In this document: piece by piece, positions 38,062 through 64,000 of the stretch
Position numbering within the stretch: position 1 is the stretch's first letter
Layout of the letters: every line of letters starts with the position of its first letter
From: Thermoanaerobaculia bacterium
GTDB lineage: Bacteria > Acidobacteriota > Thermoanaerobaculia > UBA2201 > DAOSWS01
DNA length: 64,000 bases
Direction: 5' to 3'
Assembly: GCA_035593605.1 (NCBI GenBank)
Contig: DAOSWS010000005.1
Span: 52,834-116,833, forward strand
Made by a program: the position numbers and the translations under genes
The notes under the pieces: generated by a model
The model's input: the letters and a program-made list of their open reading frames with translations, nothing else
The model's database searches: none
Told to the model about the DNA's origin: nothing

Positions 38062-41000
38062 TTAGTCGAAGAGAATAGTGGAAATGTCAAATTGCTTCAC
38101 GAAATCAGCAGCATCTCTGGCCGTCAGGGGACGTGAAATATGGTACCCCTGGGCATAGTTGCATCCCAGATCTTTTAGCGCACGGATCTGCTCGGCCATC
38201 TCGACGCCCTCTCCCATGACCTTCATATTCAGGTGATGGCCCAGCGAAATAATAGTAGATACGATTTCCGAACGGTCTTTGGGAGACTTCATCTTCATAA
38301 TGAAAGATCGATCAATTTTCAGAAAATCCAGAGGAAACTGATGCAGGTAACTCAAGGATGAATATCCAGTGCCAAAATCATCCACCAGGAGCTTGACTCC
38401 CAGTGCCTTCAGCTGAAACAGGGTGGATGTGACATCTTCTACCCGTTCCATGATCATACCTTCGGTGATCTCCAGGCCAAGAGAGTCGGGAGAAAGGTTG
38501 CATATGCGGAGGGTTTCACCGATGAATTCGGGAAGGTCAGGCTGGTAGAGAATGTGGTTGGAGAGGTTAACGGTGCAGGACAGATCTGCGCTTTCCTTCG
38601 TGAGGGATTTCCATTCCGAAAGTTGCCGGCATGTTTCTCCAATGACCCACCGATCAATCTCCGCCATATAGCCGGCATCGGTTGCGATCGTAAGGAAGTC
38701 ATCAGGTGTCATCAATCCCCGCTCCGGATGCTTCCATCGTATGAGGGCTTCAAAACCGTGAACTTTGGACAGATCCAGGTTAATAATCGGTTGGTAATGA
38801 AGGTTGAATTCCTTCCGGTTTAACGCGGATCGGAGCTCGTTCTCAAGCTTGAGGATGGATACGGCCCGGGCATGCATGCCGGCTTCAAAGATGGCGTAGG
38901 AGCCTCTGCCCAGAACTTTTGCCTTGTACATGGCTGATTCGGCATCCCGGAGATAGAGCTCCGGGCGGCTGTGAGCGATATGACTGAAGGAAATTCCGAT
39001 ACAGGCTGAGGTGTAGATTTCATGTTCGCCAATCGTGATGGGAGACTGGAAAGAGGTCAGGATCCGATCTGCCAGACGCGTAACCTCGGAAGGATCTTCA
39101 ACATCCTCGACCAGGATGGCGAACTCGTCTCCTCCGAGCCTTGCAACCGTGTCTCCGGGAAGGAGGCTGCCGCGGATTAATTCTCCGGTTCGTATCAACA
39201 GACGATCTCCGATGAGGTGCCCCAGGCTTTCGTTTATCACCTTGAATCGATCCAGATCGATGTGCAGAACAGCAAATGTGGTTTCTTCACTGCGACGGGT
39301 GCGCTCGATCGCCTGACCGAGACGGTCGGTGAAAAGTGCACGGTTGGGAAGAAGGGTCAGTGCATCGTGAAACGCGTCATGGAGAAGCTGCTCCTCTGCT
39401 CTCTTCCGATCGGTGATGTCGGTCTGGGACCCCGCCATTCGTATGGGACGGTTTTCCTCATCCCGCACGGCCATGCCCCTGGCAAGAACCCAGCGGTAGG
39501 TACCATCCCGATGGACGATTCGGAATTCTCTTTCAAAATGGGGCTCGAGGCCAGCCAGGTGAGCCTGAAAAGCACTTTCCACTTCCAGCCTGTCATCCTC
39601 ATGAATCCGTTCCAGCCATTCTCCAGGTTTGCTGCTTATCTCTTCCTCCGCAAATCCAAGCATCGATTTCCACCGGGGTGAATAATAAACCGTGTCATGC
39701 TTTAAATCCCAATCCCAGAGGCCGTCGTTGGCGCCTTTTGCAGCCAGTGCATAGCGGAGTTCACTTTCCTGAAGAGCCGTTTCAGATTTTTTCCGGTTTG
39801 AAGATTCTACCGCAAGGGAAACAAGGTCGGCCATCGATGCCGCGAAGAGTTCCTCATCAAATTCCCACGCTCTTCTTGGGCCAATATGTTCATGACAGAG
39901 GATCCCGATCACTTCTCCGCCGATACGGATCTGGGCATCGATCATGGAGGAAATGTGGTTTGGTTTCAGGTAGCCATTTGCAAATTCTCGCGTTCGGGGA
40001 TCGGTGAGCACGTCGTCGGTGGCTATCGTGCGGGATTCCCGGATCGATTTAAAATAGACCGGGAAATCCGCGACGGCGAGCTGGATACCGGAATCGTGAA
40101 AATCATCGCTTCGCGAATAGAGGTCAATACAGTCTAATTGTTTTCCGTCGCCCGAGAACATCCATACACTGACGCGCTCGACATCAAGGGTCTCTGCGGC
40201 TTTCCGGGTAACCTGACGGATGAAAGCAGGGAGATCGCCATGGGAAAGCTCGGCGCTTTTCGTCAGATCCAGCAGAACCCTGTTCTGGGTTCGAAGACGG
40301 TGATCACTGTCGCGAATAATGCTCTCCGCCCTTTTTCGATCCGTGATGTCGCGGCCGATTCCCTGTAAGGTTCCATCGGGTAGACGGACTGCGGAGATTT
40401 CCACGGGGAATTCCGTTCCATCTTTTCTTTTGAATGTCCGCTCAAGAAGGACCGCACGCTTTTCCCGTAAAGACGGTATCTGAAGGGGAAGGCGTTTCAG
40501 ATCTCGCTCTGGAATCAGTTCAGTGTACAATTTTCCGATTAATTCTTCCTTTGAATACCCTGTCATATTGCATGCAGCCTGGTTGACCTGGAGAATTCGG
40601 GCATCGTCACTGACAATGTAGATGGCATCGGAAGCCTGTTCGATGAGCGTCCGATAACGTACTTCACTTTCGATCACTGCACGCTGGGATTTGACGATCG
40701 ATGTAATATCTTCCACGGTTCCATCGTAGTACAGTACTTCTCCGGCGTCGTTCCGAACGACAGTCGAATTTTCCCTGACAAAGAGAGAGGAACCATCTTT
40801 CCTTTTCCACTCCGCCTCAAACCCCTGAATCGTTCCTGAAGCATGGATGACTTCCAGAAATTCTTTTCTGGTGCATGCATCTTTGTATCCCGATTCTCGG
40901 ACATCGATGGAAGAGAGGTCCTCAAACGATGAATAACCCAGCATGGAAACCAGCGCAGGATTCGCCATCAATACCTTTCCGTCAGGCGAAGTCCGATAGA

Positions 41001-43707
41001 TCCCGATGAGGGCGTTTTCATAGAGGCTTCGGAATCGTTCCTCCGATTCACGGATTCGTTCCTCCGAGAGCTTCTTTTCCGTAATGTCATCTTCGATCCC
41101 GATCATGTGCGTGATCGCGCCGTCATCATCTTTCAGAGGAGAAACGGTGAGGTGGACCCAGAATAGTTCACCGGTCTTTTTCCGATTCACAAGTTCTCCA
41201 GACCAGACGTCACCTGCTTTCACCGTTCTCCAAAGGTTCTCATGTACCTGCGGATCGTGATAGTCGGATTGAAGAATATCCGGTGTCTTCCCGATTGCCT
41301 CTTCTCGCGGCCAGCCGGTCACCTGGACGAAACGCTCGTTTACGTACTCGATCGCCCCTTCTGGATTGGTAATAATGATAATACTGCCACTTTGCTCCAC
41401 GGCACTGGAAAGCATGCGCAGTTGAGCCTGTGTCTTTCTTTCCCGGGTCGTATCTCGAATCGTTCCAAGGGTGGCAGGGGCGCCCATGTACTGGATTAAT
41501 CCTGCTGTGATGTGACAGTAAAGACGATGGCCCTCTTTGTGAATGAGGCGGATGTCATATTCAGAGGGAATGCTTTCCCCTGCCTGCCTTCGTGCATATC
41601 GGTCCAGCACCATCTCCTTGTCTTCGGGCGCGAGGATGTCTTCGTACGACACGGCCATAAACTCGGGGTGGGTGTAGCCCAGCATTTCGGCAAAGGCCTC
41701 GTTGGCGAAGATCATCTTTTGCCCCTGAAGGAGAAAAACGCCGTCGTGGATGTGCTCCACCAGAGTGCGGTAATGTTCTTCCGATTCCTTCAGCCTCTGT
41801 TCTGACCGCTTCTGATCCGTGATGTCTTTCAGGGTTCCCAGGCTGGCCACGCTGCCTTTGTAATTCAACAGACCGACGTGCATGAAAACATGGACGCGGG
41901 AACCATTCCGGTGGAGAAGCCTGAATTCGTATTCATCCGGAACGTCCTCTCCAGCCTGGCGTTTTGTGTACCGATCCACTACCCAGTCGTGGTCCTCCGG
42001 GGCGATGATGGAGTCGAAGGGGAGGGAAAGCAGGTCATTGGAACTCATTCCGACCATGCGGGCGAAAGCTTCGTTGACGTATTTGAAAATGTTGTCCTGG
42101 ATTAGAAAGACACCATCTTGGATGTTTTGAAGGAGAGTCCGGTAGTGTTCCTCCGATTCCCGAATTTTTTCTTCCGCCTGCTTCGACTCCGTGATATCAC
42201 GTACAATTCCGCAGATGGAGTGAACCCTGTCCCCTTCCATCTCCAGAGGGACCTGTACGGTATGAAAATAGTGGATTTTTCCACCAATGGTCAGTTCTCG
42301 AATTTCATCGACGATCTCTCCGCTGAAAGCCGCATTATCGACTTCCCGAATAATGGTGGCCGCTTCCGGAGGAAAGAGATCTTCAGGACACTTGCCCAGA
42401 AGCTCTCTCTGGGAGACTCCAAAGAGACGGGCCATGGAAGGATTGACAAAGGTGTACCTGCGGTCCATGTCCTTTATGAAGATGGAGTCTCGCGCGGTTT
42501 CGGTGATGGCTCTAAACCGCGCCTCGCTCTCTTTTACCTTCTTTTCGGCCCTGCGAAGTTCTTCAAGGTTTCTTACAAGAGCGACGGCAATGGGTTCATT
42601 TTTTCCCGTGCGCAGAACTTCTCCGATTCTCCGGAGGCGGACTTCCACGGGAAACTGCGTACCGTCGGCTCTTTTTGCCATCCATTCCACATCGACGGAT
42701 TCCCCGTCCAGGGCTCGTTTGACATATTGAAAGGCCTGCTCCTTTGTGCACCCGTCTCCCATGAACTGTTCGGGATCGTTCTGAAGGATTGCATCCTTAG
42801 AACATTGATACGCCTTCAGGACGTTGGCATTGACGTCGATCAGGCGTCCATCCGCTCCGTGGATAAAGATCATGTCGGGGGATGCATCGTAAATCGCCTG
42901 GAGAAAATCTCTCGCTTCCCTCAGGGATTCTTCCGCATGAACTCTCTCGGTCACATCCTCACCCGATGAGAGGGTGTGCGTGATGAACCCGTTCTCATCC
43001 CGGAGGTAGGTGTTGCGCCATTCGATCAGCCGCTCATCCCCCTTCCTGGTCCGGACCGGGTTGGCGTATTCAGTGAAGGCCTGGACCTGCCCGTGGATCA
43101 GGGATTCAAATACTCCCTTCAGCTCTCCCGCCATCCGGGAGGGAATAAAGGAGTCAAACCAGTTCTTTCCCACAATTTCAGAGACGGAATAGCCAAGAAT
43201 TTCAGCACCCTTCCTGTTGATATGGACAATTTGTGCCTGTGGATTCAGAATTAGAAGGATTACGTTTGCGACATCAAAATACTTCTGAGCCAGGTCGCGC
43301 TGGTGTTCCAGCTCCCGGATGACCGCGATCCTCTCGCTAATGTCTCGAAAAAGTCCCAGAACATGGGTCTTTCCCTCAATTACGAGATTTTTTGCGCTGA
43401 TTTCGACCGGGATGCGCTTTCCGCTGGAATGAACCACTTCCAGCGGCTCGGATATCGCTTTCCCTAAAGCCTTATGATCCTGGAAAATCTTTCTGTAGCG
43501 CTCCCGATCTTCGGGCGGGTGCAGTTCTGACTGATGCTTTCCCAGGATCTGGTCCCGGGGCAGTCCGAGCAGTTCCTCAGACCGGTGGTTGATTTCTACG
43601 ATCACGCCCCTGTCGTCGGCGATAAAAATGGCATCGTTCGCACTGTCCAGAAACGAACGTGCTTCCTCCGGCAGATGGAAGATTCCTGAATCAGACTCAG
43701 GGTCCAT
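38062..43707 (-). CDS. multi-PAS/GAF sensor diguanylate cyclase/phosphodiesterase (GGDEF-EAL)
   Basis: About 10 PAS/PAC units (recurring …NEAF…G(Y/W)…E(E/D)…G motifs) and a GAF. GGDEF (RLGGDEFAIL). C-terminal EAL domain (…QPI…EALIRW…, DDFGTGYSSL). 1881 aa. Confidence 0.85.
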   Translation of the reverse strand: MDPESDSGIFHLPEEARSFLDSANDAIFIADDRGVIVEINHRSEELLGLPRDQILGKHQSELHPPEDRERYRKIFQDHKALGKAISEPLEVVHSSGKRIPVEISAKNLVIEGKTHVLGLFRDISERIAVIRELEHQRDLAQKYFDVANVILLILNPQAQIVHINRKGAEILGYSVSEIVGKNWFDSFIPSRMAGELKGVFESLIHGQVQAFTEYANPVRTRKGDERLIEWRNTYLRDENGFITHTLSSGEDVTERVHAEESLREARDFLQAIYDASPDMIFIHGADGRLIDVNANVLKAYQCSKDAILQNDPEQFMGDGCTKEQAFQYVKRALDGESVDVEWMAKRADGTQFPVEVRLRRIGEVLRTGKNEPIAVALVRNLEELRRAEKKVKESEARFRAITETARDSIFIKDMDRRYTFVNPSMARLFGVSQRELLGKCPEDLFPPEAATIIREVDNAAFSGEIVDEIRELTIGGKIHYFHTVQVPLEMEGDRVHSICGIVRDITESKQAEEKIRESEEHYRTLLQNIQDGVFLIQDNIFKYVNEAFARMVGMSSNDLLSLPFDSIIAPEDHDWVVDRYTKRQAGEDVPDEYEFRLLHRNGSRVHVFMHVGLLNYKGSVASLGTLKDITDQKRSEQRLKESEEHYRTLVEHIHDGVFLLQGQKMIFANEAFAEMLGYTHPEFMAVSYEDILAPEDKEMVLDRYARRQAGESIPSEYDIRLIHKEGHRLYCHITAGLIQYMGAPATLGTIRDTTRERKTQAQLRMLSSAVEQSGSIIIITNPEGAIEYVNERFVQVTGWPREEAIGKTPDILQSDYHDPQVHENLWRTVKAGDVWSGELVNRKKTGELFWVHLTVSPLKDDDGAITHMIGIEDDITEKKLSEERIRESEERFRSLYENALIGIYRTSPDGKVLMANPALVSMLGYSSFEDLSSIDVRESGYKDACTRKEFLEVIHASGTIQGFEAEWKRKDGSSLFVRENSTVVRNDAGEVLYYDGTVEDITSIVKSQRAVIESEVRYRTLIEQASDAIYIVSDDARILQVNQAACNMTGYSKEELIGKLYTELIPERDLKRLPLQIPSLREKRAVLLERTFKRKDGTEFPVEISAVRLPDGTLQGIGRDITDRKRAESIIRDSDHRLRTQNRVLLDLTKSAELSHGDLPAFIRQVTRKAAETLDVERVSVWMFSGDGKQLDCIDLYSRSDDFHDSGIQLAVADFPVYFKSIRESRTIATDDVLTDPRTREFANGYLKPNHISSMIDAQIRIGGEVIGILCHEHIGPRRAWEFDEELFAASMADLVSLAVESSNRKKSETALQESELRYALAAKGANDGLWDWDLKHDTVYYSPRWKSMLGFAEEEISSKPGEWLERIHEDDRLEVESAFQAHLAGLEPHFEREFRIVHRDGTYRWVLARGMAVRDEENRPIRMAGSQTDITDRKRAEEQLLHDAFHDALTLLPNRALFTDRLGQAIERTRRSEETTFAVLHIDLDRFKVINESLGHLIGDRLLIRTGELIRGSLLPGDTVARLGGDEFAILVEDVEDPSEVTRLADRILTSFQSPITIGEHEIYTSACIGISFSHIAHSRPELYLRDAESAMYKAKVLGRGSYAIFEAGMHARAVSILKLENELRSALNRKEFNLHYQPIINLDLSKVHGFEALIRWKHPERGLMTPDDFLTIATDAGYMAEIDRWVIGETCRQLSEWKSLTKESADLSCTVNLSNHILYQPDLPEFIGETLRICNLSPDSLGLEITEGMIMERVEDVTSTLFQLKALGVKLLVDDFGTGYSSLSYLHQFPLDFLKIDRSFIMKMKSPKDRSEIVSTIISLGHHLNMKVMGEGVEMAEQIRALKDLGCNYAQGYHISRPLTARDAADFVKQFDISTILFD

Positions 43708-52845: not shown

Positions 52846-55800
52846 TCAATTACAGGTAAAGGTGACCTGTATTTTCCAGGTTCCCCCGTCGTTGTACTTG
52901 TTGAGATAGATCGTGCAGTTCCCGACGAGCTCGTAGAAAACCAGCGGCCGTCCGTTGTCGGTCAGAACAGTAGGATCCGGGTCGACGTAGGGTGAGGTGA
53001 TATCGGCGGCGTAAAAGTCGTCGTCATCTTCGGAGCCGTTGGCTTCCATCATCGAGCCTTCCCCTTCGTCGGCAACCATGTTCGCCCCGGAGGGATCAAG
53101 GGCCGGGTCAGCAGGATGGGTCTGCACAAAGATCGCGTTCAAGGCTGTGGAGAGGGGATTCGTAGAAGCAATCTCGTCATTCCGGAGAAGGTCGGGAATC
53201 GGGATCGGTCCCGAATCGGGATCTAGGTAGTCGGGAATCCCGTCGTTATCCTGGTCGTCATCACTCCAGTCTCCATTCCCGTTGGTGTCCTCCTCCGAGG
53301 TGTCATAGCCGTCCCCGTCGTCATCCACATCCTGAAAGTCGGGTTTCCCGTCCGTGTCGGTGTCCTGAAGGGTCGCCGGGGTCGTCTCGTAGGAGTCATC
53401 CAGGCCGTTTCCGTTTGTGTCGGTAATCGTGTCGATCTGACCGTCGCCATTCGAGTCCACGACCGTCGTATTGTCGTTCACGCCGTCATGATCCGCGTCG
53501 TTCCCCTCGATCAGGTCTTCCACCCCGTCTCCGTCGGCATCAAGGTCCTGAAAGTCCGGGCTGCCGTCCCCGTCGGTGTCGACGGGCTTGGTTCCCAGAT
53601 CACTGTCTCCCGCTTCGTCCGCGTCGGGGATCCCGTCGTTGTCACAGTCCAGGTCGAGGTAGTTGGGTACTCCATCCCCGTCGAAGTCTCCGAAGGATTC
53701 GTCCTCGTCGGAGATCGTGTCCCCGTCGGAGTCCAGGTCCAGGTAGTTGGGAATTCCATCCCCGTCCGGGTCGCCCAGGCCTTCCTGACCGTCCGAGATT
53801 CCATCATCGTCGCTATCGGGGTCCCTGAAGTCGGGGATCCCGTCTCCGTCGGTGTCCACCGGGGGTGTGTCCGGGTTCCCGTCGCCCCCTTCCACGGAAT
53901 CGGGGATCCCGTCGTTGTCCGAGTCAAGGTCCAGGTAGTCGGGAATCCCATCGCCATCCGTGTCCCCCGCACCCTCATCGCTGTCGTAAATCCCGTCCCC
54001 GTCACTGTCCAGGTCCTGGTCGTTGGGGATCCCGTCTCCGTCCTGGTCATCCAGCGGGGCCGAATTCTCCGTCACGTCAGGAATCCCATCGTTGTCACTG
54101 TCCGTAAGGGCGTCGGGATCCAGAAAGTCGGGCTGTGTATCCCCGTCGCCGTCTCCCGTCCCTTCAATCCGATCAGGAATCCCGTCGTCATCGGAGTCCG
54201 GATCCAGGTAGTTGGGAATTCCATCACTATCCGTGTCGTCCCCGATCGGGCTCGTGTCTCCCCCGAAGCGGTCGTATTCGTTTGCGGTGGGGATCCCGTC
54301 GTTGTCATCGTCAGTGTCAAGGAAATCGGGATTGCCATCATTGTCGCTGTCCTGCAGTGCCGCCGGTGTCGTCTCATAGGTGTCATCCAGGCCGTTGCCG
54401 TTCGCATCGGTGATCGTGTCGATTCGGCCGTCGTTGTCGGCATCGGTCACGCCGGTGTTGTCATTGGCGCCATCCTGGTCGGCATCGTTCCCTTCGATCA
54501 GGTCCCACACGCCGTCGCCATCACTGTCCAGGTCGAGGTAGTTGGGAATTCCGTCTCCATCAAAATCTCCCGCTCCCTCCGCTGCATCCGGAATCCCGTC
54601 GTTGTCACTGTCAAGATCGAGATAGTCCGCGACGCCGTCCCCGTCACTGTCCCCCGATCCTTCTGTTACGTCAGAGATCCCGTCCCCGTCGCTGTCCGTT
54701 GGTACGTCGGGATCCAGAAAGTCCGGCGATCCGTCTGTGTCGGAGTCCGCCGTACCCTCAATCTGGTCCGGAAGTCCATCCGCGTCGGAGTCCAGGTCCA
54801 GGTAGTTGGGTATGCCATCCCCATCGTAATCATCGGTCCCGGTTCCGCTGTCTTCCACGCTGTCCGGAATCCCGTCGCCGTCGGAGTCGGGATCCAGGAA
54901 ATTGGGAATCCCGTCCCCGTCGATATCCCCGGTGCCTTCGATACTGTCGGGAATGCCGTCCCCGTCGGAGTCGTCATCGATGTAGTTCCCCAGCCCGTCT
55001 CCGCCATCCGCTGTGTCCCCTGTATGTTCCGTAGCGTCGGGGATGCCGTCGCTATCGGAGTCGAGGTCGAGGTAATTGGGGTTCCCGTTGGAGTTCGTGT
55101 CATCATCTGTGGGATCGCCGTTCCCGTTGGCGTCTTCGTCCGCCGTGGGGATGCTGTCCCCGTCATCGTCCGGATCGAGATAGTCAGGGAGGGTATCGCC
55201 GTCGAAGTTCTGCGTAACGGCCGGCGTGCCTCCTTCGCTGGGGTCGTAGTGGTCGTCCCACCCGTCTCCGTCTGCGTCGGTGATTGTGTCGATCCTGCCG
55301 TCATTGTCCGCGTCGGTAACTGCATAGTCGGTAACACCGTCAAAGTTTGCATCATTGCCTTCGATAAGGTCCCACACTCCGTCGCCGTCCGAGTCCAGGT
55401 CGAGGTAGTTCGGAATTCCGTCCCCGTCGGCATCTCCCGTTCCTTCCACTGCGTCCGCAATCCCATCGTTGTCCGCATCCAGATCTGGAGTGTCGGCAAT
55501 TCCGTCCCCGTCGGTGTCAGGTTCCAGTACGAAGTCATCCATGGCGGCCGCGTCCGGATCCGTTGGGGAATAAAGGGGCGGGATCGGTGCCCCGGTGGGA
55601 TAGATCACTGCGTGCCAGGTTCCTTCCGAGCCCAGGCTCGAACCGTCGACGCTCGTCGACAGCTCACCTGATCCGTTGGTGATCACGGTCTGGGTGAGTA
55701 CGAGGGTTCCGTCTTCATCGTAGTACACCACCGTATACGACGTTGTGGGCAGGAGGGGACTTCCGTAAAGATAGATCGTATCGGCCAGCGTAAAGTAATC

Positions 55801-58509
55801 TTCAGGGTCGGTCCAGGAGGCATCGGCGTAGGAAGCCAGGGCCGTGCCCACCGGGATGGGGAAGGTGGCCGTGGCGATCGTGTTGTCGCAGGACCCCAGC
55901 CAGTAGACCTGAATCGTGTAGATTCCCTCTACCGGGAAGGATACGTTGTTGACCGAGACTGTCTCCGTGGCCGAATCGCCCGCTGCAATCGTGTGGGGCA
56001 GGGTGATCCTTGTGAACAGGGCCGAATCATAGGAGGAAAAGGTCCCGGAGGAAGTAAGGTATTGTGTGCCATCCGGGTTGATGACCCGGTAGCGGTATGT
56101 GGTGTCGTAATAGACGGCTCCCGTGGATGTGTTATTGAATGTAGCCGTCACGGTGAGGTTGTTGCCCGTCAGGCTGTACGAGGCCCGGTTCGTCGTGATC
56201 GGACCGATTGTCGACGGTGTGGCGGCAGGGTCAAGGGTGATGAGAATCGTGTCAAGAAGCGTGCCGGACTGGTAGAGTCGAACCGTCCAGGTACCCAGCG
56301 TGTCTGTCGAGGTGAAGGTGTACTCGTCCAGGGCGTCCCCGCTTCCGTCCGTCGGTACCGTGTGGGACTGGATCGCCGTACTCGAAGAGGGGGGGAAGAT
56401 GTCGATCCGGTATGTGGTCGTCGTCGACAGGGTCAGCGATGCCCCCTGCAGGTATACCGTGTCACACCGGGCAAAGAAGGTCTGGGAGATCGTGCGGTTA
56501 GGATCAGCATACGCGGCAATGTAGCTGACCGTGAGCTGGTCCGTGACTGCCGCCGTGGCTCCAGTGCCCGACGTCGCCGTCACTGTGGTCGAGTTCTGCA
56601 CGGGATAACTGGTCGGGGCCAGATCGGGAACGATGATCTCCACCACAAGGTCCATTTCCCCACCATACGCAGGAAGGGAAAACGTACCTGTAATCTGGTT
56701 TCCATCGGACGGGTTTCCGTCCCCGTCCGGATCGGTGTAATACCGGACCGTCCATCCCTGCGTCGAGGTCTGGCTCAGCGTGATCGTTTCGGATGTAATC
56801 CAGGAATTGATCAGCGTGTGGGCAAAGAAGACCGAACGGCTGTCCCCGCTGAACTTGTTTGTGTTATTTGAAAAGAGGTAGGAAGGGGTCAAGGTCAGAC
56901 GGCTCCGGATCGTTGTCGTGAGCTGAGCGTCATCCGACGTGCCGTAAATGTCGCCTACGGCTGTAACGGAGGTTACATCCACGTCGTTCAGAGTTCCTGA
57001 ATAGACCCGTACACGGAAGGTTACCGGTGTGCCGTTGAAGACCGTCCCGAAATCGGGATAGCCGTTACTGTTCGTGTCATATCCGCTCTGGATCGATTCA
57101 AAGCTCCCGTCCCCGTTTGTGTCCTCCGCGACAAGGGCCCCGCCTCCGGTGTAGATCTGCAGGCGGTAGCCGAGAGACGAAAGGACGTACAGATCAAAAA
57201 CGTCGTCCAGACCGTTATTGGTCAGCGTCAATGTGTACTCGGCATATTGCCCCACGGCGGCTGCCCCTGTCTGGAGTGACGGCTGGAGTGTAACCTGGCC
57301 AATTCCTGTGATGTCGGTGACTGAATCGTACGAGTCCAGAGGCTCGGTCAGCGAAATTGCGGTAAGGATCGTTGTGTCGATCACGTCCGTGATCCCGGCC
57401 GCGGCCGTCAGTTCCAGGCGCAGGGAAAAGGTGTTTCCGGGAGAGGCCGTTGTCAGAATCGGCGTGTCGGGGCGTGTGTCCCCCGTTCCGGAATCGCTGT
57501 TATACACAGGGTTGACGTAGTCCCAGTCCCCGTCTCCATCGGTGTCCGAGGCCATCAGGGTGTTCGTGCCGTCATCGTAAAGATCGGCCGGAAGAGCCAG
57601 GCTGGAGGAAATCTCAAAGTTGTACTCGTCGTCCAGCGTGCCTGTGTTTTTGCAGGTATGGTAATAGGTAATCGTTGCGGGATTCCCCGGCGCCACCGTC
57701 TGGGATTCGTTGTCATAAAGATCCACCAGGTAAAAGGCGAAGGAGCCGATCCCTCCGTCTGGACCGCCGAGGTTGTCGTCAATCTGCGCCGGAACCGTGC
57801 CTCCGTTGGAATTGTTGCTGGAGGAAACGTGAAAGTAGACCGGCGTCCCGGCGGGGACCCCCAGGTTTGTCCAGGGAAGGCGGCATTCGAAGCCGCGGCC
57901 GTCGGCAAAGCCGCCGATTGTGTTGGTATAGATCGTGACAGGAGGATAGGGCGCCTTGGTGTAGAGTGTTCCCGGCAGTGTATAACCGTCAGCGTACCCG
58001 GAGGCATCCACGAGGCTGTCCCCGTTGGTGTCATCCACGGCGTTATAGGTGAAGAGGTACGCTTCCGTGTTCCGGTTGGAACCATTAAGGACAACCTGAA
58101 AGACCTTTTCCCCGTCGTTCATACGCTTGTTCCGGCTGGTATCGCAGTAAAAATAGTAGGTCTGCGTGTTGGTAGAACTTCCGTACCGGGATACGTACAT
58201 GTAGATATTGGAGCCGTCATATGTCCAGGCAAAACGGTTCAGGTCCCGTCCCGAAATGTTTGTATTATTCGTGCAGTCCCGGTCCAGGGGCGGAACGTTG
58301 CACTGTGGAGAAAACTCTCCGTCGTTCGTCACCTGGAGCGGATTGGAAAGGATCGGAGCCCAGTCCGTTGCCACGCCATCCACGGTGATCGTCTTCAGGG
58401 TCGGTCCGGCCGCAAAGAGTGACAGCGCGGTGAGAATCATCAGAAGTACAAAAACCGAACATCGATACAAAAATGCGCCTGCCAGTACATGTGATTTCAT
58501 AAAATTCAT
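52846..58509 (-). CDS. giant secreted calcium-binding repeat protein (thrombospondin type-3-like Asp-rich repeats) with conserved C-terminal tail
   Basis: Signal peptide. About 950-aa beta-rich N-terminal region. Then dozens of D-x-D-x-DG-(I/V)-x-D/DLDSDGDGIPD repeats of TSP3/OmpA-associated type. C-terminal …PLVFYEL…KIQVTFTCN. 1887 aa. Confidence 0.7.
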   Translation of the reverse strand: MNFMKSHVLAGAFLYRCSVFVLLMILTALSLFAAGPTLKTITVDGVATDWAPILSNPLQVTNDGEFSPQCNVPPLDRDCTNNTNISGRDLNRFAWTYDGSNIYMYVSRYGSSTNTQTYYFYCDTSRNKRMNDGEKVFQVVLNGSNRNTEAYLFTYNAVDDTNGDSLVDASGYADGYTLPGTLYTKAPYPPVTIYTNTIGGFADGRGFECRLPWTNLGVPAGTPVYFHVSSSNNSNGGTVPAQIDDNLGGPDGGIGSFAFYLVDLYDNESQTVAPGNPATITYYHTCKNTGTLDDEYNFEISSSLALPADLYDDGTNTLMASDTDGDGDWDYVNPVYNSDSGTGDTRPDTPILTTASPGNTFSLRLELTAAAGITDVIDTTILTAISLTEPLDSYDSVTDITGIGQVTLQPSLQTGAAAVGQYAEYTLTLTNNGLDDVFDLYVLSSLGYRLQIYTGGGALVAEDTNGDGSFESIQSGYDTNSNGYPDFGTVFNGTPVTFRVRVYSGTLNDVDVTSVTAVGDIYGTSDDAQLTTTIRSRLTLTPSYLFSNNTNKFSGDSRSVFFAHTLINSWITSETITLSQTSTQGWTVRYYTDPDGDGNPSDGNQITGTFSLPAYGGEMDLVVEIIVPDLAPTSYPVQNSTTVTATSGTGATAAVTDQLTVSYIAAYADPNRTISQTFFARCDTVYLQGASLTLSTTTTYRIDIFPPSSSTAIQSHTVPTDGSGDALDEYTFTSTDTLGTWTVRLYQSGTLLDTILITLDPAATPSTIGPITTNRASYSLTGNNLTVTATFNNTSTGAVYYDTTYRYRVINPDGTQYLTSSGTFSSYDSALFTRITLPHTIAAGDSATETVSVNNVSFPVEGIYTIQVYWLGSCDNTIATATFPIPVGTALASYADASWTDPEDYFTLADTIYLYGSPLLPTTSYTVVYYDEDGTLVLTQTVITNGSGELSTSVDGSSLGSEGTWHAVIYPTGAPIPPLYSPTDPDAAAMDDFVLEPDTDGDGIADTPDLDADNDGIADAVEGTGDADGDGIPNYLDLDSDGDGVWDLIEGNDANFDGVTDYAVTDADNDGRIDTITDADGDGWDDHYDPSEGGTPAVTQNFDGDTLPDYLDPDDDGDSIPTADEDANGNGDPTDDDTNSNGNPNYLDLDSDSDGIPDATEHTGDTADGGDGLGNYIDDDSDGDGIPDSIEGTGDIDGDGIPNFLDPDSDGDGIPDSVEDSGTGTDDYDGDGIPNYLDLDSDADGLPDQIEGTADSDTDGSPDFLDPDVPTDSDGDGISDVTEGSGDSDGDGVADYLDLDSDNDGIPDAAEGAGDFDGDGIPNYLDLDSDGDGVWDLIEGNDADQDGANDNTGVTDADNDGRIDTITDANGNGLDDTYETTPAALQDSDNDGNPDFLDTDDDNDGIPTANEYDRFGGDTSPIGDDTDSDGIPNYLDPDSDDDGIPDRIEGTGDGDGDTQPDFLDPDALTDSDNDGIPDVTENSAPLDDQDGDGIPNDQDLDSDGDGIYDSDEGAGDTDGDGIPDYLDLDSDNDGIPDSVEGGDGNPDTPPVDTDGDGIPDFRDPDSDDDGISDGQEGLGDPDGDGIPNYLDLDSDGDTISDEDESFGDFDGDGVPNYLDLDCDNDGIPDADEAGDSDLGTKPVDTDGDGSPDFQDLDADGDGVEDLIEGNDADHDGVNDNTTVVDSNGDGQIDTITDTNGNGLDDSYETTPATLQDTDTDGKPDFQDVDDDGDGYDTSEEDTNGNGDWSDDDQDNDGIPDYLDPDSGPIPIPDLLRNDEIASTNPLSTALNAIFVQTHPADPALDPSGANMVADEGEGSMMEANGSEDDDDFYAADITSPYVDPDPTVLTDNGRPLVFYELVGNCTIYLNKYNDGGTWKIQVTFTCN

Positions 58510-58850: not shown

Positions 58851-58881
58851 TTAAAAAAAACGCCCCGGCAAAGCCGGGGCG
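58851..58881 (-). terminator. rho-independent terminator of the 58905-64000 gene
   Basis: GCCCCGGCTTTGCCGGGGC hairpin on the minus strand followed by T8 (A8 at 58853-58860 on +). Lies 20 nt 3' of the TGA stop. Confidence 0.85.
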
Positions 58882-58904
58882 CTGAAGTTCTGCGGGAGAA
58901 AAGA

Positions 58905-61900
58905 TCAGTTGTAGGTAATGACGACCTTTCCGCCGGATTTGGTGACCATGACCGTATCCAGACCCTTGGTCAGTTCATAGAAGATCAACGGCTCAGCGCC
59001 CGGGTCAAGGTCATTGGTTTCATTGGGAAATGGATCGTTGGATAGGAATTGGGCCTTTTCCAGGTCACGCCCGGGGTTAAGACCGGGGTCGCCGGGGTAG
59101 GGCCGGAAGTTGAAGATCTCGGCGAAGGTTAATGTGGCTGCATCGTCGTTACGCAGGAGCCAGACGTCATCGACCCGAACCGTCTTGGTATCTGACGTGA
59201 CACATCCGTGAACGTCCGTGAACGTATAGGTAATGACGAATGTACCAACTCCCGCCAGAGTTGGACTGAATGTACCCAGTGAGCCATTGGTGATCCCGGT
59301 TCCAGACCAGATTCCTGACGCGGGAGAAGCGCCGCTCAGGTTGAAGGGATCGGCACCGAGCCACGTAATCTCATCGGCTCCCGCTTCGGTCGTGGTGTAG
59401 TACCACTGGCCGGTTGACGCCAGGGGATCCATATTGAAACAGGCCCCCGAAGCCGTGCCGCGGTCGGTGACCAAACAGTTGTAGGTGTGGGTTTCCGCGC
59501 CGCTGTGGGTTACGGAAAGAACGGTGTTGACCGACATGAAGATATCGGATATGTCCGCAACTCCACCGCCACCACATCCGCTCAGTTCAAAGATGTAGAG
59601 CTTGTAGTTCCCGGGACCGTGTGCCGGATCGTTGTAGAAAAGGGTGATGTCATAGGGTGCGGCTGAAGGAACGCCATAATCCTTCAGGACGATTCGATCC
59701 AGGTTTGGGGCTTCCAGTTCAATCCGCACACAGTTAAGAAGGTCGGTGGTTCCGCCAAGGATGTAGTAGACCCTGGCGATGTCGGCAGGCGGTGCGATGG
59801 TAAAACCGTTCAGGGTAAAGGCCTGTCCACCCGAGAGATCGTTATCCACGATGCCTGCCTGACCGGCTCTCCATGCTGCTTCTCCAGCTTCTCCGGGCAT
59901 GTCTGAGCCGTCTTCCTGCCACTGGGTGGTGTAAATTCCCGTCCCGCCCGTGGCGCGGACGATGAAGTCCAGGTACTCATCATAGCAGGTGGATGTCGTG
60001 GCGTTGGGTGTGACGTCAACTGAGACGCCCGTCACAACGGTAACGCTGGTGGTTTCGCTGTCGGAACATCCGTATCCGTCTTCCACGGTCAGGAGGTACG
60101 TTCCGCTGTTGGCTGTCGAAGCTCCGACGATCGTTGGATTCCTGTCAAAGGAGTCGAATCCGTTGGGACCGGTCCAGTGGTAGGAAACCATTCCGTCCGG
60201 GCCGCCGAATAGTTCGATGGTTTCACCTTCGCAGTAGGCGCCCGTGTTTGTAGCTGTGGCTACCGGGTCGGAGACTCGCACGTTCTTTGTGTCAGCGTTG
60301 AAGCAGGTACCGTCGAAGATCGTGTAGGTGAGGGTGTGAATCCCGGCTCCAGCCACGGCAGGGTTAAAGGTACCCAGGCCGGGGTTTGTGATTCCCGTAC
60401 CGCTCCAGACTCCGCCCGCAGGAGAAAAGCCGGTCATGTTGTAGGGCGGAGTGTTAATGCAGACATTATCATTGGAGCCTGCATCGACGGCCGGAAGCGC
60501 ATTGACGATAACGGTGGTTGATGTGCTGGCAATGCAGCCGTTGCTGTCTGTTACCGTCAGAGAGTAAGAACCGGCCTGTGCCAGGGTGATTCCCACGATC
60601 TGGGGGCTCTGTTGTGAACTCGTGTATCCATTAGGTCCTACCCAGCTGTATATGGACATACCCGCGGGGCCGCCAGTAAGCTGGAGGATTCCTCCTTCAC
60701 AAACCGGACCGTTATTGGAGGCGGTCACGGCCGGTGGAGCATTAACTGTTACCGTTGTCTGGGCCTGATCGGTGCAGCCTGCAGCATTGGTCACGGTCAG
60801 CGTGTAGACGCCATTATGAGAGGAAGTCGTTACGAGAATGGTTGGGCTCTGGAGTGAACTCGTGTATCCATTCGGTCCTGTCCAGCTGTAGGAGCTCATA
60901 CCGGCGGGACCGCCGATGAGTTGAACCGGAAATCCCTCGCAGACCGGGCCTGTGTTGGAAGCCGTGGCTGTGGGAGATGCATTAACCGTAACGGAGGTCG
61001 TCGTCTGATCGGTACAGCCATTGGCATCGGTTACTGTGAGCGTGTAGACACCCGCAGCCGCGGATGTGGCATCGGCAATGGTCGGGCTCTGGAGAGATGA
61101 CGTGAAGCCATTCGGTCCTGTCCAGGCATAGGAAGCCATGCTGTCGGGTTCACCGGTCAGGTCGATCGTATCACCTTCACAGTACGGTCCGCCGTTGGAG
61201 GCGGCAGCTGTTGGAGGTGTATTGACCACGACGGTCGTCGTATCCTGTCCGGTACATCCTCCGGAATTGGTTGCGGTCAGCGTGTAGTCTCCACCCATCG
61301 CCGCTGTTGCGGCCGGGATTGAAGGATTCTGTTCACTGGATGTAAATCCGTTCGGGCCGGTCCATGCGTAGGATGCCATGCTGTCCGGTGAACCGTTCAG
61401 CTGAATCGTGTCCCCCTCACAGTAGGGTCCGGTGTTCGAAGCTGTAGCCGTGACGCCAATATCGACAGTTACCGAAGTTGTTGCGTCATCGGTGCATCCA
61501 TCGGCATTCGTTACGGTAAGAGTATATACACCGGCCATTGCGGTTGTCGAAGAGAGAATCGAAGGACTCTGTTCACTGGAGGTATACCCGTTGGGACCTG
61601 TCCATGCGTAAGAGGACATCCCATCCGGACCGCCCGTGAGCTCGATGGTCTGGCCTTCGCAGTAGGGGCCGCCGTTGGAGGCCGAAGCCACCGGTGCGGT
61701 ATTCACCACCACCGTGGTTGTGTCCTGATTCGTGCATCCATCACCATCGGTGACGGTCAGCGTGTAGTCACCCGCCATGGCGACCGTTGCGGAGAGAATG
61801 GAAGGACTCTGTTCGCTGGATGTGTACCCGTTCGGACCCGTCCATGCATAGGTTGTCATGCCGTCGGGAGCACCGGTCAGCTGGATCGTGTCTCCTTCGC

Positions 61901-64000
61901 AGTAGGGACCGCCGTTCGTGGCCGTGGCTGTCGGCTGTGTCCATTCACCGGTGTTGCTGGTCAGGTCGGACGTGGCGCAGCCGGAGGTGGTGCCCAGGTC
62001 GCTGATGAGGCAGTTGTAAGCGTGACTCTGGGGCGTGGAGTAGGTGAGGGTCAGCTTGTGGTTGACCCCCATGAAGATATCGGAAATGTCCGCAGAACCG
62101 GTGTCGCATCCGGAAAGTTCCAGGACAATCAGATTGTAGTCGCCGGGGCCGTACGTATTGTAAAACCCCGTGATATCGAAGGGGGAAGCTGCGGCAACGC
62201 CGTAGTCTTTCACCACCAGACGGTCAAGCGTGGGGGCTTCCAGCTCGATCCGGACACAGTTCAGCAGGTCGGTGGTCCCGCCCAGTGTGTAGTAAAGTTC
62301 GGCAAGATCCGCAGGGGAAGCAATCGTGAAACCGTTCAGGGCAAAGGACGCACCGGCGGGATCGTTGTCGATCAAACCGGTAGCTCCCGTGTTCCAGGCG
62401 GCTTCACCCGTCTTGCCCGCCAGATCACCGCCATCTTCCTGCCACTGGAGACCGTAGATTCCCGATCCGCCGGAGGCAAAGACGTTGAAGGTGATGTTTT
62501 CATCGACGCAGGCCGAAGACGTGCCGTCGGGCGTGGCATCGACGGTCATCACCGTGTAGACAGATACCGTGGTTGTCTCAGCGTCAGAGCAGCCGTTGGC
62601 ATCGGTTACCGTCAGTGTGTAGACTCCTGCCTCTGCAGTGGTAGCGGATGCAATCGCGGGGCTCTGTTCCGAAGAGGTGAATCCGTTGGGGCCTGTCCAG
62701 GCATAGGTGGTCATTCCGTCGGGTCCGCCCGTCAGCTGGATCGTTTCCCCTTCGCAGTAGGGACCGCCATTGGAGGCCGTGGCCACCGGGGCTGCGTTCA
62801 CGACGACATCCGTCGTGTCCTGGCCGGTACAGCCGTTGGTGTCCGTGACCGTCAATGTGTAGGTGCCGGCTGCAGCCAGTGTCGCTGCCAGCGTTGGACT
62901 CTGCTGGTCGGAGGTGAATCCGTCCGGTCCGGTCCAGGCATAGATCGCCATGCTGTCCGGGGCGCCGGTGAGCTGGATCGTGTCACCCTCACAGTAGGGT
63001 CCGCCGTTGGAGGCCGCAGCCACCGGGGGCGTATTGACGACAACATCCGTCGTATCCTGACCCGTGCAGCCGCTTCCGTCCGTAATCGTCAGGGTATAGG
63101 TGCCTGCAGCCGCCAGGGTCGCGGGAACGGTTGGATTCTGTAATGCTGACGAGAATCCATCCGGTCCGGTCCAGGCATAGATCGCCATGCCGTCGGGAGC
63201 GCCGGTCAGCTGGATCGTGTCTCCCACGCAGTAGGGCCCGCCGTTGGTGGCCGTAGCTACCGGAGCCGCGTTCACGACAACGGTAGTCGTGTCCTGATTC
63301 GTGCATCCATCACCATCGGTGACGGTCAGCGTGTAGTCACCCGCCATGGCGACCGTTGCGGAGAGAATGGAAGGACTCTGTTCGCTGGATGTGTACCCGT
63401 TCGGACCCGTCCATGCATAGGTTGTCATGCCGTCGGGAGCACCGGTCAGCTGGATCGTGTCTCCTTCGCAGTAGGGACCGCCGTTCGTGGCCGTGGCTGT
63501 CGGCTGTGTCCATTCACCGGTGTTGCTGGTCAGGTCGGACGTGGCGCAGCCGGAGGTGGTGCCCAGGTCGCTGATGAGGCAGTTGTAAGCGTGACTCTGG
63601 GGCGTGGAGTAGGTGAGGGTCAGCTTGTGGTTGACCCCCATGAAGATATCGGAAATGTCCGCAGAACCGGTGTCGCATCCGGAAAGTTCCAGGACAATCA
63701 GATTGTAGTCGCCGGGGCCGTACGTATTGTAAAACCCCGTGATATCGAAGGGGGAAGCTGCGGCAACGCCGTAGTCTTTCACCACCAGACGGTCAAGCGT
63801 GGGGGCTTCCAGCTCGATCCGGACACAGTTCAGCAGGTCGGTGGTCCCGCCCAGTGTGTAGTAAAGTTCGGCAAGATCCGCAGGGGAAGCAATCGTGAAA
63901 CCGTTCAGGGCAAAGGACGCACCGGCGGGATCGTTGTCGATCAAACCGGTAGCTCCCGTGTTCCAGGCGGCTTCACCCGTCTTGCCCGCCAGATCACCGC
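58905..64000 (-). CDS. giant repeat-containing surface protein (SprB-like about 80-aa Ig-like repeats with Cys pair), 5' end beyond window
   Basis: At least 11 repeats of …NGGPYCEGDTIQLTG.PDGM..YAWTGPNG(F/Y)TS….P.I……AG.YTLTVTD.(N/D)GC…TTV.V… Three copies of a separate 150-aa module. C-terminal tail homologous to the neighbouring giant protein. The ORF is still open at the window edge. Confidence 0.7.
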   Translation of the reverse strand, partial: GDLAGKTGEAAWNTGATGLIDNDPAGASFALNGFTIASPADLAELYYTLGGTTDLLNCVRIELEAPTLDRLVVKDYGVAAASPFDITGFYNTYGPGDYNLIVLELSGCDTGSADISDIFMGVNHKLTLTYSTPQSHAYNCLISDLGTTSGCATSDLTSNTGEWTQPTATATNGGPYCEGDTIQLTGAPDGMTTYAWTGPNGYTSSEQSPSILSATVAMAGDYTLTVTDGDGCTNQDTTTVVVNAAPVATATNGGPYCVGDTIQLTGAPDGMAIYAWTGPDGFSSALQNPTVPATLAAAGTYTLTITDGSGCTGQDTTDVVVNTPPVAAASNGGPYCEGDTIQLTGAPDSMAIYAWTGPDGFTSDQQSPTLAATLAAAGTYTLTVTDTNGCTGQDTTDVVVNAAPVATASNGGPYCEGETIQLTGGPDGMTTYAWTGPNGFTSSEQSPAIASATTAEAGVYTLTVTDANGCSDAETTTVSVYTVMTVDATPDGTSSACVDENITFNVFASGGSGIYGLQWQEDGGDLAGKTGEAAWNTGATGLIDNDPAGASFALNGFTIASPADLAELYYTLGGTTDLLNCVRIELEAPTLDRLVVKDYGVAAASPFDITGFYNTYGPGDYNLIVLELSGCDTGSADISDIFMGVNHKLTLTYSTPQSHAYNCLISDLGTTSGCATSDLTSNTGEWTQPTATATNGGPYCEGDTIQLTGAPDGMTTYAWTGPNGYTSSEQSPSILSATVAMAGDYTLTVTDGDGCTNQDTTTVVVNTAPVASASNGGPYCEGQTIELTGGPDGMSSYAWTGPNGYTSSEQSPSILSSTTAMAGVYTLTVTNADGCTDDATTSVTVDIGVTATASNTGPYCEGDTIQLNGSPDSMASYAWTGPNGFTSSEQNPSIPAATAAMGGDYTLTATNSGGCTGQDTTTVVVNTPPTAAASNGGPYCEGDTIDLTGEPDSMASYAWTGPNGFTSSLQSPTIADATSAAAGVYTLTVTDANGCTDQTTTSVTVNASPTATASNTGPVCEGFPVQLIGGPAGMSSYSWTGPNGYTSSLQSPTILVTTSSHNGVYTLTVTNAAGCTDQAQTTVTVNAPPAVTASNNGPVCEGGILQLTGGPAGMSIYSWVGPNGYTSSQQSPQIVGITLAQAGSYSLTVTDSNGCIASTSTTVIVNALPAVDAGSNDNVCINTPPYNMTGFSPAGGVWSGTGITNPGLGTFNPAVAGAGIHTLTYTIFDGTCFNADTKNVRVSDPVATATNTGAYCEGETIELFGGPDGMVSYHWTGPNGFDSFDRNPTIVGASTANSGTYLLTVEDGYGCSDSETTSVTVVTGVSVDVTPNATTSTCYDEYLDFIVRATGGTGIYTTQWQEDGSDMPGEAGEAAWRAGQAGIVDNDLSGGQAFTLNGFTIAPPADIARVYYILGGTTDLLNCVRIELEAPNLDRIVLKDYGVPSAAPYDITLFYNDPAHGPGNYKLYIFELSGCGGGGVADISDIFMSVNTVLSVTHSGAETHTYNCLVTDRGTASGACFNMDPLASTGQWYYTTTEAGADEITWLGADPFNLSGASPASGIWSGTGITNGSLGTFSPTLAGVGTFVITYTFTDVHGCVTSDTKTVRVDDVWLLRNDDAATLTFAEIFNFRPYPGDPGLNPGRDLEKAQFLSNDPFPNETNDLDPGAEPLIFYELTKGLDTVMVTKSGGKVVITYN
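61720..62431. repeat. exact intragenic direct repeat copy 1 (partner 63289-64000, period 1569 bp)
   Basis: 61722-62431 is nucleotide-identical to 63291-64000 as far as the window allows. Identity is confirmed by the identical 72-aa frame-artifact ORFs 61787-62005 and 63356-63574. Sequence upstream of the left boundary differs. Confidence 0.85.
63289..64000. repeat. exact intragenic direct repeat copy 2 (truncated by window edge)
   Basis: See copy 1. Confidence 0.85.

Follow-up and report, generated by a model that had tools for sequence, protein, structure and literature searches.

Why are two long segments of one coding region identical base for base? The question is raised by the end of a 64,000-nt stretch of DNA from a Thermoanaerobaculia bacterium (hereafter, the window), where positions 61722-62431 and 63291-64000 match at 710/710 bases and the match reaches 2 nt further left (61720/63289). 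Exact identity over 710 nt rules out chance as the origin of the match. An earlier note on this DNA reported the identity and its period of 1569 nt, both of which we confirm, and offered as causes a very recent duplication, ongoing gene conversion in an adhesin of variable phase or size, or an assembly artefact from mis-joined repeats. The best explanation that we have is a joint one: the duplication is old, 1013 nt of it were later converted, and the perfection of the match is a product of assembly. We put the probability of this explanation at about three in four. Taken as a whole, the finding is real but ordinary.

The gene and its domains

The repeat lies in a gene that runs past the end of the window. 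The whole gene is present in contig NODE_31 of ENA assembly ERZ795048 (L001 below), to which the window is 100% identical across 21,155 nt; a window position is obtained as w = 68510 - L001 position. The gene has 9471 nt (L001 135-9605), starts 4.4 kb past the window end, and encodes a product of 3156 aa. The following features lie in the window:

58905..64000, minus strand: 3′ 5.1 kb of the giant-protein gene (open frame and translation), with the last 1697 codons and the stop codon (58905-58907)
60242..63479, minus strand: array of ~80-aa Ig-like repeats (Ig_2/PKD/Ig_7) with a G-P-Y/V-C motif
59250..60050, minus strand: split Ig-like repeat and its putative nested jelly-roll domain, in a third, old copy
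58859..58883, minus strand: intrinsic-terminator-like hairpin directly past the stop codon (11-bp stem, 9 G-C pairs, T run)

NCBI labels the identical protein as a hypothetical protein from a Thermoanaerobaculia bacterium (MAG). Its N-terminus (MITLLNRKSVSIVIFSLLLLISGISLAQ) resembles a Sec signal peptide, as judged by eye from the translation, and scans with Pfam and NCBIfam recognised no anchor domain in the protein. The Pfam matches are to Ig_2, PKD, and Ig_7 repeats. The N-terminal ~1000 aa and the C-terminal ~85 aa are found elsewhere only in the neighbouring paralogue. We infer that the protein is secreted and is a putative surface protein with an adhesin-like role. (An Rfam scan of the window gave zero matches.)

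The whole protein has 15 Ig-like repeats at a spacing of 79-81 aa, and gaps of 285 aa hold a split repeat and a nested domain. Apart from the duplicated unit, the ~80-aa repeats have 60-76% DNA identity. The nested domain is predicted to be a P-domain-like jelly roll that sits within an Ig-like repeat and outside the coverage of Pfam. An alignment-based structure model of this insert reached a pLDDT of 88.8. (A single-sequence AlphaFold model of the 212-aa module core had a pLDDT of 33, and a PDB sequence search with the core gave no meaningful match.) The third copy has 60% protein identity to the duplicated copies (121/202), much as had been estimated before.

An old duplication with a probably converted tract

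The period of 1569 nt equals 3 x 523, so the repeat is in frame, on the minus strand. Each 523-aa module contains three Ig-like repeats, an Ig_3/SprB-type repeat with the predicted nested jelly roll, and one further Ig-like repeat. The repeat was expected to continue past the window edge, and it does: in L001, the perfect tract is 1013 nt long (4209-5221 versus 5778-6790), which corresponds to window 64301-63289, partly past the window, versus 62732-61720. This tract encodes half of an Ig-like repeat, the split Ig_3/SprB-type repeat with the putative jelly-roll domain nested in it, and another Ig-like repeat. The parts of the two copies are:

63289..64000, minus strand: copy 1, part within the window (whole unit, L001 3696-5221; 1013-nt tract, L001 4209-5221)
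63246..63288, minus strand: junction of copy 1 and copy 2, unique sequence within a hybrid Ig-like repeat
62733..63245, minus strand: diverged 5′ part of copy 2 (L001 5265-5777), 91.8% identical to copy 1
61720..62732, minus strand: near-identical tract of copy 2 (L001 5778-6790), 1013/1013 identical to copy 1 here and 1006/1013 in JGI assemblies

None of the 31-mers of the junction (L001 5220-5264) recurs in the locus. The 1569-nt module is a genuine in-frame tandem duplication, and it is old.

The two units have 91.8% identity over 513 nt and 99.3-100% identity over 1013 nt. In counts, the copies have 0-7 differences in the 1013 nt, depending on the assembly, versus 42 in the 513 nt (30 synonymous and 7 non-synonymous codons), and these 42 copy-specific differences are the same in all five of the full-length contigs, which come from four samples. 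For the 5′ part (L001 3699-4205), dS is 0.284 and dN is 0.026, and the dN/dS ratio of about 0.09 indicates purifying selection. For the 1013-nt tract (L001 4212-5219), dS is at most 0.024, which is the value for the JGI configuration described below. Divergence falls 12-fold at L001 4208/4209, within one unit, and 7 of the 49 differences sit in the 1013-nt part (binomial P = 7e-14).

Because the 5′ 513 nt have reached a dS of 0.28, the duplication must be old rather than recent, and because the step in synonymous divergence lies inside the unit, the near-identity of the 1013 nt is better explained by gene conversion than by recent duplication. In a blastn search against the locus and the window, the two 5′ parts are each other's best match (92%), and other matches are below 80% at any substantial length. 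The abrupt change in dS and the lack of an alternative donor in the locus or window both support gene conversion, probably by recombination between the two copies. Conversion from a third donor was considered and rejected, as the blastn search of the locus and window found none. To this extent the earlier note was right to suggest conversion, but the variation in size or phase that it attached to the suggestion was not seen (every full-length assembly has 3156 aa). What is seen here is the footprint that a conversion event would leave.

Perfect identity as a probable product of assembly

Assemblies of the same clone from different samples have three configurations at nine paralogous sites in the repeat. 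In the remainder of the 64-kb window, there are 0 mismatches to the other assemblies (L007-L014, L012, and L016-L019). The sites are:

62508..62628, minus strand: six clustered sites in copy 2 (62628, 62580, 62577, 62570, 62553, and 62508; L001 5882-6002)
L001 4313-4433, past the window end: copy-1 partners of the six clustered sites
62375..62376, minus strand: dinucleotide site, paralogous or polymorphic (L001 6134/6135; partner 63944-63945)
61785, minus strand: variant site (L001 6725; partner 63354 = L001 5156), with G in both copies in the window

ERZ795048, which has the sequence of the window, has ATGAGC, TT, and G at these sites in both copies. The complementary set (GGAGAT, CC, and A) is found in both copies of ERZ795057. 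In three JGI contigs, copy 1 has GGAGAT, CC, and G, and copy 2 has ATGAGC, CC, and A. Each alternative allele is the allele that is present in the paralogous copy. The two ENA assemblies, both with SPAdes-named contigs, hold opposite homogenised versions, and it is only in SPAdes-named ENA contigs that homogenisation is complete. In the JGI assemblies, the copies differ at 7/1013 positions and match without interruption for at most 722 nt. (One of these differences falls within the 710 nt: window 63354, G, versus 61785, A.) As JGI assemblies of the same clone differ in this way, the base-perfect identity is most likely a bubble-collapsed consensus and not a biological property.

We propose the following history. 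An in-frame tandem duplication of the 1569-nt multi-domain module would have occurred long ago. Later, intragenic homologous recombination between the direct repeats would have homogenised the 3′ 1013 nt, to about 99.1-99.3% identity, and the 5′ 513 nt would have retained their older divergence of 8%. During assembly, the residual copy-specific variants (7-9 sites) would form bubbles in the de Bruijn graph. The assembler would merge these bubbles into one consensus repeat edge and walk it twice, so that the copies would be identical by construction. The behaviour of the assembler behind the ENA contigs is presumed from the naming of the contigs and from default settings.

The size of the shared stretches is consistent with this history. 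In the JGI configuration, the stretches beside the variant sites that the copies share are 104 and 65 nt long. A k of 55 merges them and a k of 127 keeps them apart, and the central 722 nt, also shared, merge at any k. Small-k merging would put the ends of the perfect tract exactly where they are (L001 4209 and 5221). (The dinucleotide at 62375-62376 is too distant from the other differences for phasing by k-mers of up to 127.)

The ends of other contigs point the same way. We predicted beforehand that a k = 141 contig would break at a variant site, and such a break was then found: the MEGAHIT contig k141_325499 (ERZ27257410) starts at window 61926, one 141-mer before site 61785, and has A at that site; over 13,022 nt, it differs from the window nowhere else. 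If the copies were truly identical, this contig would start near window 61860. A second MEGAHIT contig has the same cut point. At site 61785 of copy 2, the three JGI contigs also have A, in agreement with the MEGAHIT contig. Window 61749, which lies 30 nt inside the 3′ boundary of the repeat, is the end point of three Logan contigs (k = 31), each from a different sequencing run. Two signs of a consensus artefact are present: the disagreement among assemblies is confined to sites in the repeat, and contigs break at k-sized distances.

Two other observations concern the variant sites. First, a protein identical to that of the window is found on three contigs and under two NCBI MAG accessions. 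If these were independent, then arriving at the same three bubble branches by chance would be somewhat unlikely (1/8 each). Unless shared reads drive the choice of branches, its repetition would then speak for a real homogenised strain. Second, no assembly has a dinucleotide (62375-62376 and 63944-63945) that differs between the copies: here both have TT, and in the JGI assemblies and ERZ795057 both have CC. This could be a real concerted change.

Alternative explanations

Another possibility is that the perfect identity is real in the sample. Frequent conversion would then give either homogenised version (X/X, as in the window, or Y/Y, as in ERZ795057) or a mosaic of the two among clonal populations of different reactors or samples. 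Conversion would lead to the same pattern as collapse, in that the assemblies differ solely at paralogous sites and the alleles are those of the other copy. Also, the change from TT to CC is in both copies wherever it is found, the X/X protein recurs across contigs and MAG accessions, and conversion has left a mark on this gene before, as the step in dS shows. However, starting from the JGI configuration, each lineage would need at least 2-4 separate conversion events to arrive at X/X or Y/Y, during which zero point mutations would have arisen between the assemblies and the window over 64 kb. Also, full homogenisation is seen only in SPAdes-named ENA contigs, the copy-specific alleles are the same in all three contigs from JGI and in the MEGAHIT contigs built at k = 141, and the limits of the tract match small-k merging exactly. 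We consider this explanation unlikely. We would likewise give only a small chance to all three configurations being real, in which case a clonal population would be diversifying here only by rapid conversion and perhaps unequal crossing-over. Concerted evolution would then be visible in situ before any point mutation in 64 kb, and the homogenisation would be specific to a putative ligand-binding (P-domain-like) module.

A second alternative is that the gene has more than two copies of the module, or a variable number of them, and that short-read assembly gives the minimal traversal of a loop. This seems improbable because the diverged 5′ part is known in only two versions and because only 3156-aa versions were found among about 15 billion proteins. 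Still, when a de Bruijn graph contains a loop, the copy number is left unfixed. The 1.0-1.5 kb at 99% identity or more is also an ample substrate for unequal crossing-over, which would maintain the frame, and length variation has been associated with highly identical repeats of surface proteins (PMC8201768). No length variants were found among the three protein variants and the full-length contigs, which come from short-read assemblies of apparently one clone. A homologue search for relatives with another copy number returned the protein's own 3-member cluster; other homologues had at most 45% identity over parts of the protein. Searches of contig collections gave little more: an exact 30-nt pattern from the repeat had no match in metagenome contigs or genome contigs, protein queries scanned against genome contigs gave, for the N-terminal domain, a distant relative from Porticoccaceae and nothing else, and a protein-query scan of metagenome contigs had no match; neither further copies of the locus nor a GTDB representative came out.

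Third, the whole unit could have been duplicated so recently that it has had no time to diverge, as the earlier note suggested. A recent event would account for the long exact match and for the exact in-frame period, but the first 513 nt of the unit are 8.2% diverged, by 42 mostly synonymous differences that accumulated under purifying selection, and blastn of the locus and window gave no closer donor that might have overwritten this part. A very recent duplication is highly improbable.

Finally, short-read metagenome assemblies can mishandle repeats, and the duplication could itself be false (a tandem expansion, or mis-joined strain alleles of a gene that is truly single-copy), but we give this almost no weight: the two-copy structure and the 42 differences recur in five contigs from four samples, both SPAdes-named and JGI, the junction is unique and in frame, the clone has no strain variation elsewhere in the contigs that could supply a second allele, and the contigs built at k = 31 and k = 141 fork at the places predicted for a real repeat. 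So, although an artefact had been suspected, mis-joining of repeats is not supported; the probable artefact is the collapse of paralogous variants.

Comparison with known systems

Highly identical tandem repeats are typical of the Periscope Proteins, such as SasG/Aap, Rib/alpha C, Esp, CdrA, and Sgo_0707 (Whelan et al., 2021, PMC8201768), and the high DNA identity of such repeats makes them an expected substrate for intragenic recombination (PMC8201768). Like these proteins, the product of this gene is large and presumably secreted, with tandem Ig-like domains and a long, near-identical, in-frame DNA repeat. Unlike them, it has only two copies of the repeat, the unit is a five-domain super-module of 523 aa rather than a single domain, and divergence is 8% over one third of the unit. 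The rest of its Ig-like repeats, with their 60-76% DNA identity, follow the usual rule that neighbouring domains are diverged. The host also differs, being from an uncultured lineage of Acidobacteriota.

The gene had been described as SprB-like, which is loosely right. The best non-self homologues of the protein are Bacteroidota proteins annotated as "gliding motility-associated" or as PKD proteins (27-45% identity over parts), and like the giant T9SS adhesins of Bacteroidota it has Ig_7 ("CHU_C-associated"), PKD, and Ig_2 repeats. Three units align to Ig_3-type repeats of SprB-motif proteins (module-core residues 5-55 and 155-205). However, the SprB repeat itself (PF13573) had no match at E <= 0.01 in the 1697-aa part within the window or at E <= 1 in the module core. 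T9SS sorting domains, whether type B (CHU_C, PF13585/TIGR04131) or type A (PF18962/TIGR04183), were not found when the full protein and its C-terminal 164 aa were scanned with Pfam and NCBIfam. Also, the host is a MAG from Thermoanaerobaculia (Acidobacteriota), not from Bacteroidota. The locus is a further case, from Acidobacteriota, of a giant, putative surface protein made of Ig repeats, and it has a multi-domain module that was probably homogenised by recombination; a module of this kind can grow or shrink in frame. Neither this example nor a nested jelly roll outside Pfam, if the model is correct, would surprise specialists.

As for the assembly, metaSPAdes masks small variants as bulges on purpose, to arrive at a consensus (Nurk et al., 2017, PMC5411777). 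The pattern here resembles this bulge collapse: small variants between near-identical sequences appear to be masked, the repeat edge appears to be walked twice, and unresolved contigs break at forks. It differs from the collapse of strain variants by metaSPAdes in that the masked variants lie between paralogous copies in one genome and in that the copy number is consistently rebuilt. We see the main value of this case as a caution. Long perfect intragenic repeats in short-read metagenomes are identical by construction where the assembler collapsed them, so in the absence of read-level checks they are no evidence of a very recent duplication or active homogenisation. Here, contigs from other assemblies of the same clone sufficed to reveal the collapse.

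Concerted evolution by gene conversion between paralogues occurs in rRNA operons, in tuf genes, and in repeat-rich adhesin genes, among others. The gene described here resembles these cases in that one duplicated unit contains a homogenised tract that gives way sharply to an older, diverged one.

The repeat and its full length

The perfect repeat described in the earlier note is a property of the sequence as given: on direct comparison, window positions 61722-62431 and 63291-64000 are equal at 710 of 710 positions, and the match reaches 2 nt beyond, to 61720/63289, at an offset of 1569 nt. The sole long open frame across this region lies on the minus strand (58908-63998) and leaves the window at its end. 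Exact look-up of a neighboring gene product yielded two metagenome contigs of 150 kb, L001 (ENA ERZ795048 NODE_31), which matches the window at 100% identity across 21,155 nt, and L002 (JGI 3300025611). (A window position is 68510 minus the L001 position.) In L001, the full gene has 9471 nt and encodes 3156 aa, and the perfect tract is 1013 nt (4209-5221 versus 5778-6790), so the repeat is indeed longer than the window edge shows. The claim that a third copy of the module has about 60% protein identity also holds (121/202). Comparison at offset 1569 gives one duplicated unit in the gene, which keeps the reading frame because 1569 = 3 × 523:

L001 3696-5221, copy 1
L001 5265-6790, copy 2
43 nt of unique sequence, the junction joining the copies

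Is the identity of the copies perfect?

Contigs from different assemblies differ from each other only at nine sites in the 1013-nt tract (L001 4313, 4361, 4364, 4371, 4388, and 4433; 4565/4566; 5156) and at the partners of these sites 1569 nt away. All but one of the nine changes are synonymous, and three allele configurations occur across the assemblies.

Alleles at the six clustered sites, the dinucleotide site, and the single site
ERZ795048 (the source matching the window): copy 1 ATGAGC, TT, G; copy 2 ATGAGC, TT, G
ERZ795057: copy 1 GGAGAT, CC, A; copy 2 GGAGAT, CC, A
Three JGI contigs: copy 1 GGAGAT, CC, G; copy 2 ATGAGC, CC, A

The base-perfect quality is most likely a product of assembly, and probably not real. 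With the JGI alleles, the copies share 104 nt (4209-4312) on one side of the variant sites and 65 nt (5157-5221) on the other, stretches that a de Bruijn graph merges at k = 55 and keeps apart at k = 127; the tract's central 722 nt merge at any usual k. This pattern is as expected for a genome with copy-specific variants. Assembly with small k or bulge masking would fold such variants into one edge and traverse that edge twice, and metaSPAdes, by its own statement, masks bulges aggressively toward a consensus (PMC5411777).

A MEGAHIT assembly provided a test, as the start of a contig was foretold from record coordinates alone, before its sequence was seen. The predicted start of ERZ27257410 k141_325499 was window 61926, one 141-mer ahead of the variant site at 61785. 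Look-up of the predicted truncated product (1006 aa) returned k141_325499 and a second contig with the same cut. The variant site falls at position 142 of k141_325499, where the base is A, as in JGI copy 2; over 13,022 nt the contig departs from the window nowhere else. Had the copies been identical to the end of the repeat, the contig should have started near window 61860 rather than at 61926. With a mixture of two homogenized strains, both alleles would be joined to the downstream flank, and a break right after the site would be expected. The start and the A at position 142 therefore indicate that, in this sample, G belongs to copy 1 and A to copy 2. The most fitting reading of the G shown by the window at 61785 is that the copy-1 allele was written into copy 2. 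The TT/CC site, which no k-mer of up to 141 can phase to the distal flank, is also a candidate for a hidden variant.

Alternatively, frequent conversion could have produced real, sample-specific homogenization. We consider this unlikely: it needs several conversion events without one point mutation across the 64-kb window, and a coincidence of full homogenization with SPAdes-style contig naming. Thus, base-perfect identity stands for the given sequence but probably not for the organism, as the JGI and MEGAHIT assemblies carry copy-specific alleles; the sequence with better support is identical at 709 of the 710 nt.

Age and reality of the duplication

The unit itself is divided. Its first 513 nt have 42 differences between the copies (91.8% identity), 32 of them at third codon positions, with 30 synonymous versus 7 non-synonymous codons (dN 0.026, dS 0.284). 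The other 1013 nt have 0-7 differences (dS at most 0.024), and finding only 7 of 49 differences in two-thirds of the unit's length has a chance probability of 7e-14. Across the gene and the window, neither 5' part matches anything more closely than its counterpart, and all remaining hits fall under 80% over any substantial length. From these comparisons we infer that the duplication is old and under purifying selection and that the 3' kilobase was homogenized later, as the footprint of gene conversion between direct repeats. Of the origins that had been suggested, gene conversion is thus favored, on the strength of this footprint, and a very recent duplication is contradicted by the dS of 0.28 in the 5' part.

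The evidence also contradicts a mis-join or false expansion of the repeat. The duplication is real because the two-copy structure and the 42 differences recur in five full-length contigs, which come from four samples (ENA ERZ795048, ENA ERZ795057, JGI 3300025611, and JGI 3300010350); the junction sequence occurs once; three k = 31 Logan contigs, drawn from as many sequencing runs, stop at window 61749, exactly 30 nt inside the repeat's 3' boundary, as expected of a true fork; and other assemblies equal the window outside the repeat over all 64 kb, so no second strain allele was on hand for mis-joining.

Ordinary SNPs relative to the window were found in one assembly only, L015 (JGI 3300009772 Ga0116162_10000075), with four in 21.4 kb (window 33279, 31848, 18303, and 13044), so a slightly different strain is present in that sample. 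All remaining contigs that were fetched seem to come from a single clone.

The protein

The product is identical to one recorded at NCBI (hypothetical protein, Thermoanaerobaculia bacterium MAGs). A signal-peptide-like N-terminus, as read from the sequence, is followed by ~1000 aa without a Pfam family, which are 32% identical (E 5e-104) to the product of the adjacent gene (window 52846-58509). (This region is at L001 135-3134, outside the window, with L006 10001-10741 listed with it. Its sole relative in species-representative genomes is in Porticoccaceae MAG JBFIKF010000008.1, 33% over residues 8-275.) Then come 15 repeats of ~80 aa that score as Ig_2/PKD/Ig_7, broken by three larger inserts. 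By exhaustive profile search, each insert consists of a ~90-aa Ig_3-type repeat, whose relatives lie in proteins with SprB-motif hits as well, and a nested ~110-aa domain that no Pfam model covers. The split Ig_3/SprB-type repeats are:

window 61926-62561, minus strand
window 63495-64000, minus strand
window about 59250-60050, minus strand

For the nested domain, AlphaFold gave a confident model from an alignment (pLDDT 88.8). Among solved structures, this model is matched best by the furin/Kex2 P-domain jelly roll and next by carbohydrate-binding modules (E 7e-4, TM about 0.5), which makes a binding role plausible. The search of representative proteins returned about 25-30 relatives; in the alignment, the nested domain has C47, L52, P55, K63, Y79, and G85 invariant.

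The gene had been called SprB-like. The closest non-self homologs are Bacteroidota T9SS giants (27-45% identity over parts), and Pfam and NCBIfam scans found neither PF13573 (Pfam) nor a T9SS C-terminal domain, so the name describes a loose resemblance rather than membership.

The underlying biology is an ordinary recombination-homogenized tandem module in a giant Ig-repeat surface protein. RecA-type homologous recombination between the 1.5-kb direct repeats would leave non-reciprocal conversion tracts and would thereby explain the homogenized kilobase. In principle, it would also permit unequal crossing-over, so that 523-aa modules are gained or lost in frame. The protein's reach and its count of putative binding domains would then change, and highly identical repeats in surface proteins have been linked to such length variation (Periscope Proteins, PMC8201768). 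Only two-copy, 3156-aa versions are on record, all from short-read assemblies of apparently one clone, so copy number could still vary, with a small chance that the true array exceeds two copies.

Neighboring genes

Three nearby features are on the minus strand:

window 52846-58509, adjacent gene, 1887 aa, paralog of the repeat-bearing gene
window 58859-58883, strong terminator-like hairpin (11-bp stem, 9 G-C pairs, T run)
window 38062-43707, multi-PAS sensor, 1881 aa, many PAS domains (Pfam), unrelated to the repeat

The hairpin lies 22 nt past the stop codon of the repeat-bearing gene, so the two giant genes are probably transcribed separately. Pfam and NCBIfam scans recognized no sorting or anchor domain in either paralog, so their common C-terminus might be an undescribed one (~85 aa, weakly similar, 'LLRND...PL(I/V)FYEL...', E 0.33). 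The center of the adjacent paralog differs, with Asp-rich thrombospondin-type-3-like repeats (15-19 copies of a 31-46-nt motif). In contig L009 (JGI 3300009772 Ga0116162_10000726), whose fetched positions 1-862 are identical to window 52846-53707, the annotation splits this paralog into two products (225 aa, and 1334 aa truncated at the contig end) and the contig stops inside its repeat region, which hints at an indel or an assembly fault among the Asp-rich repeats, upstream of the stretch that was fetched.
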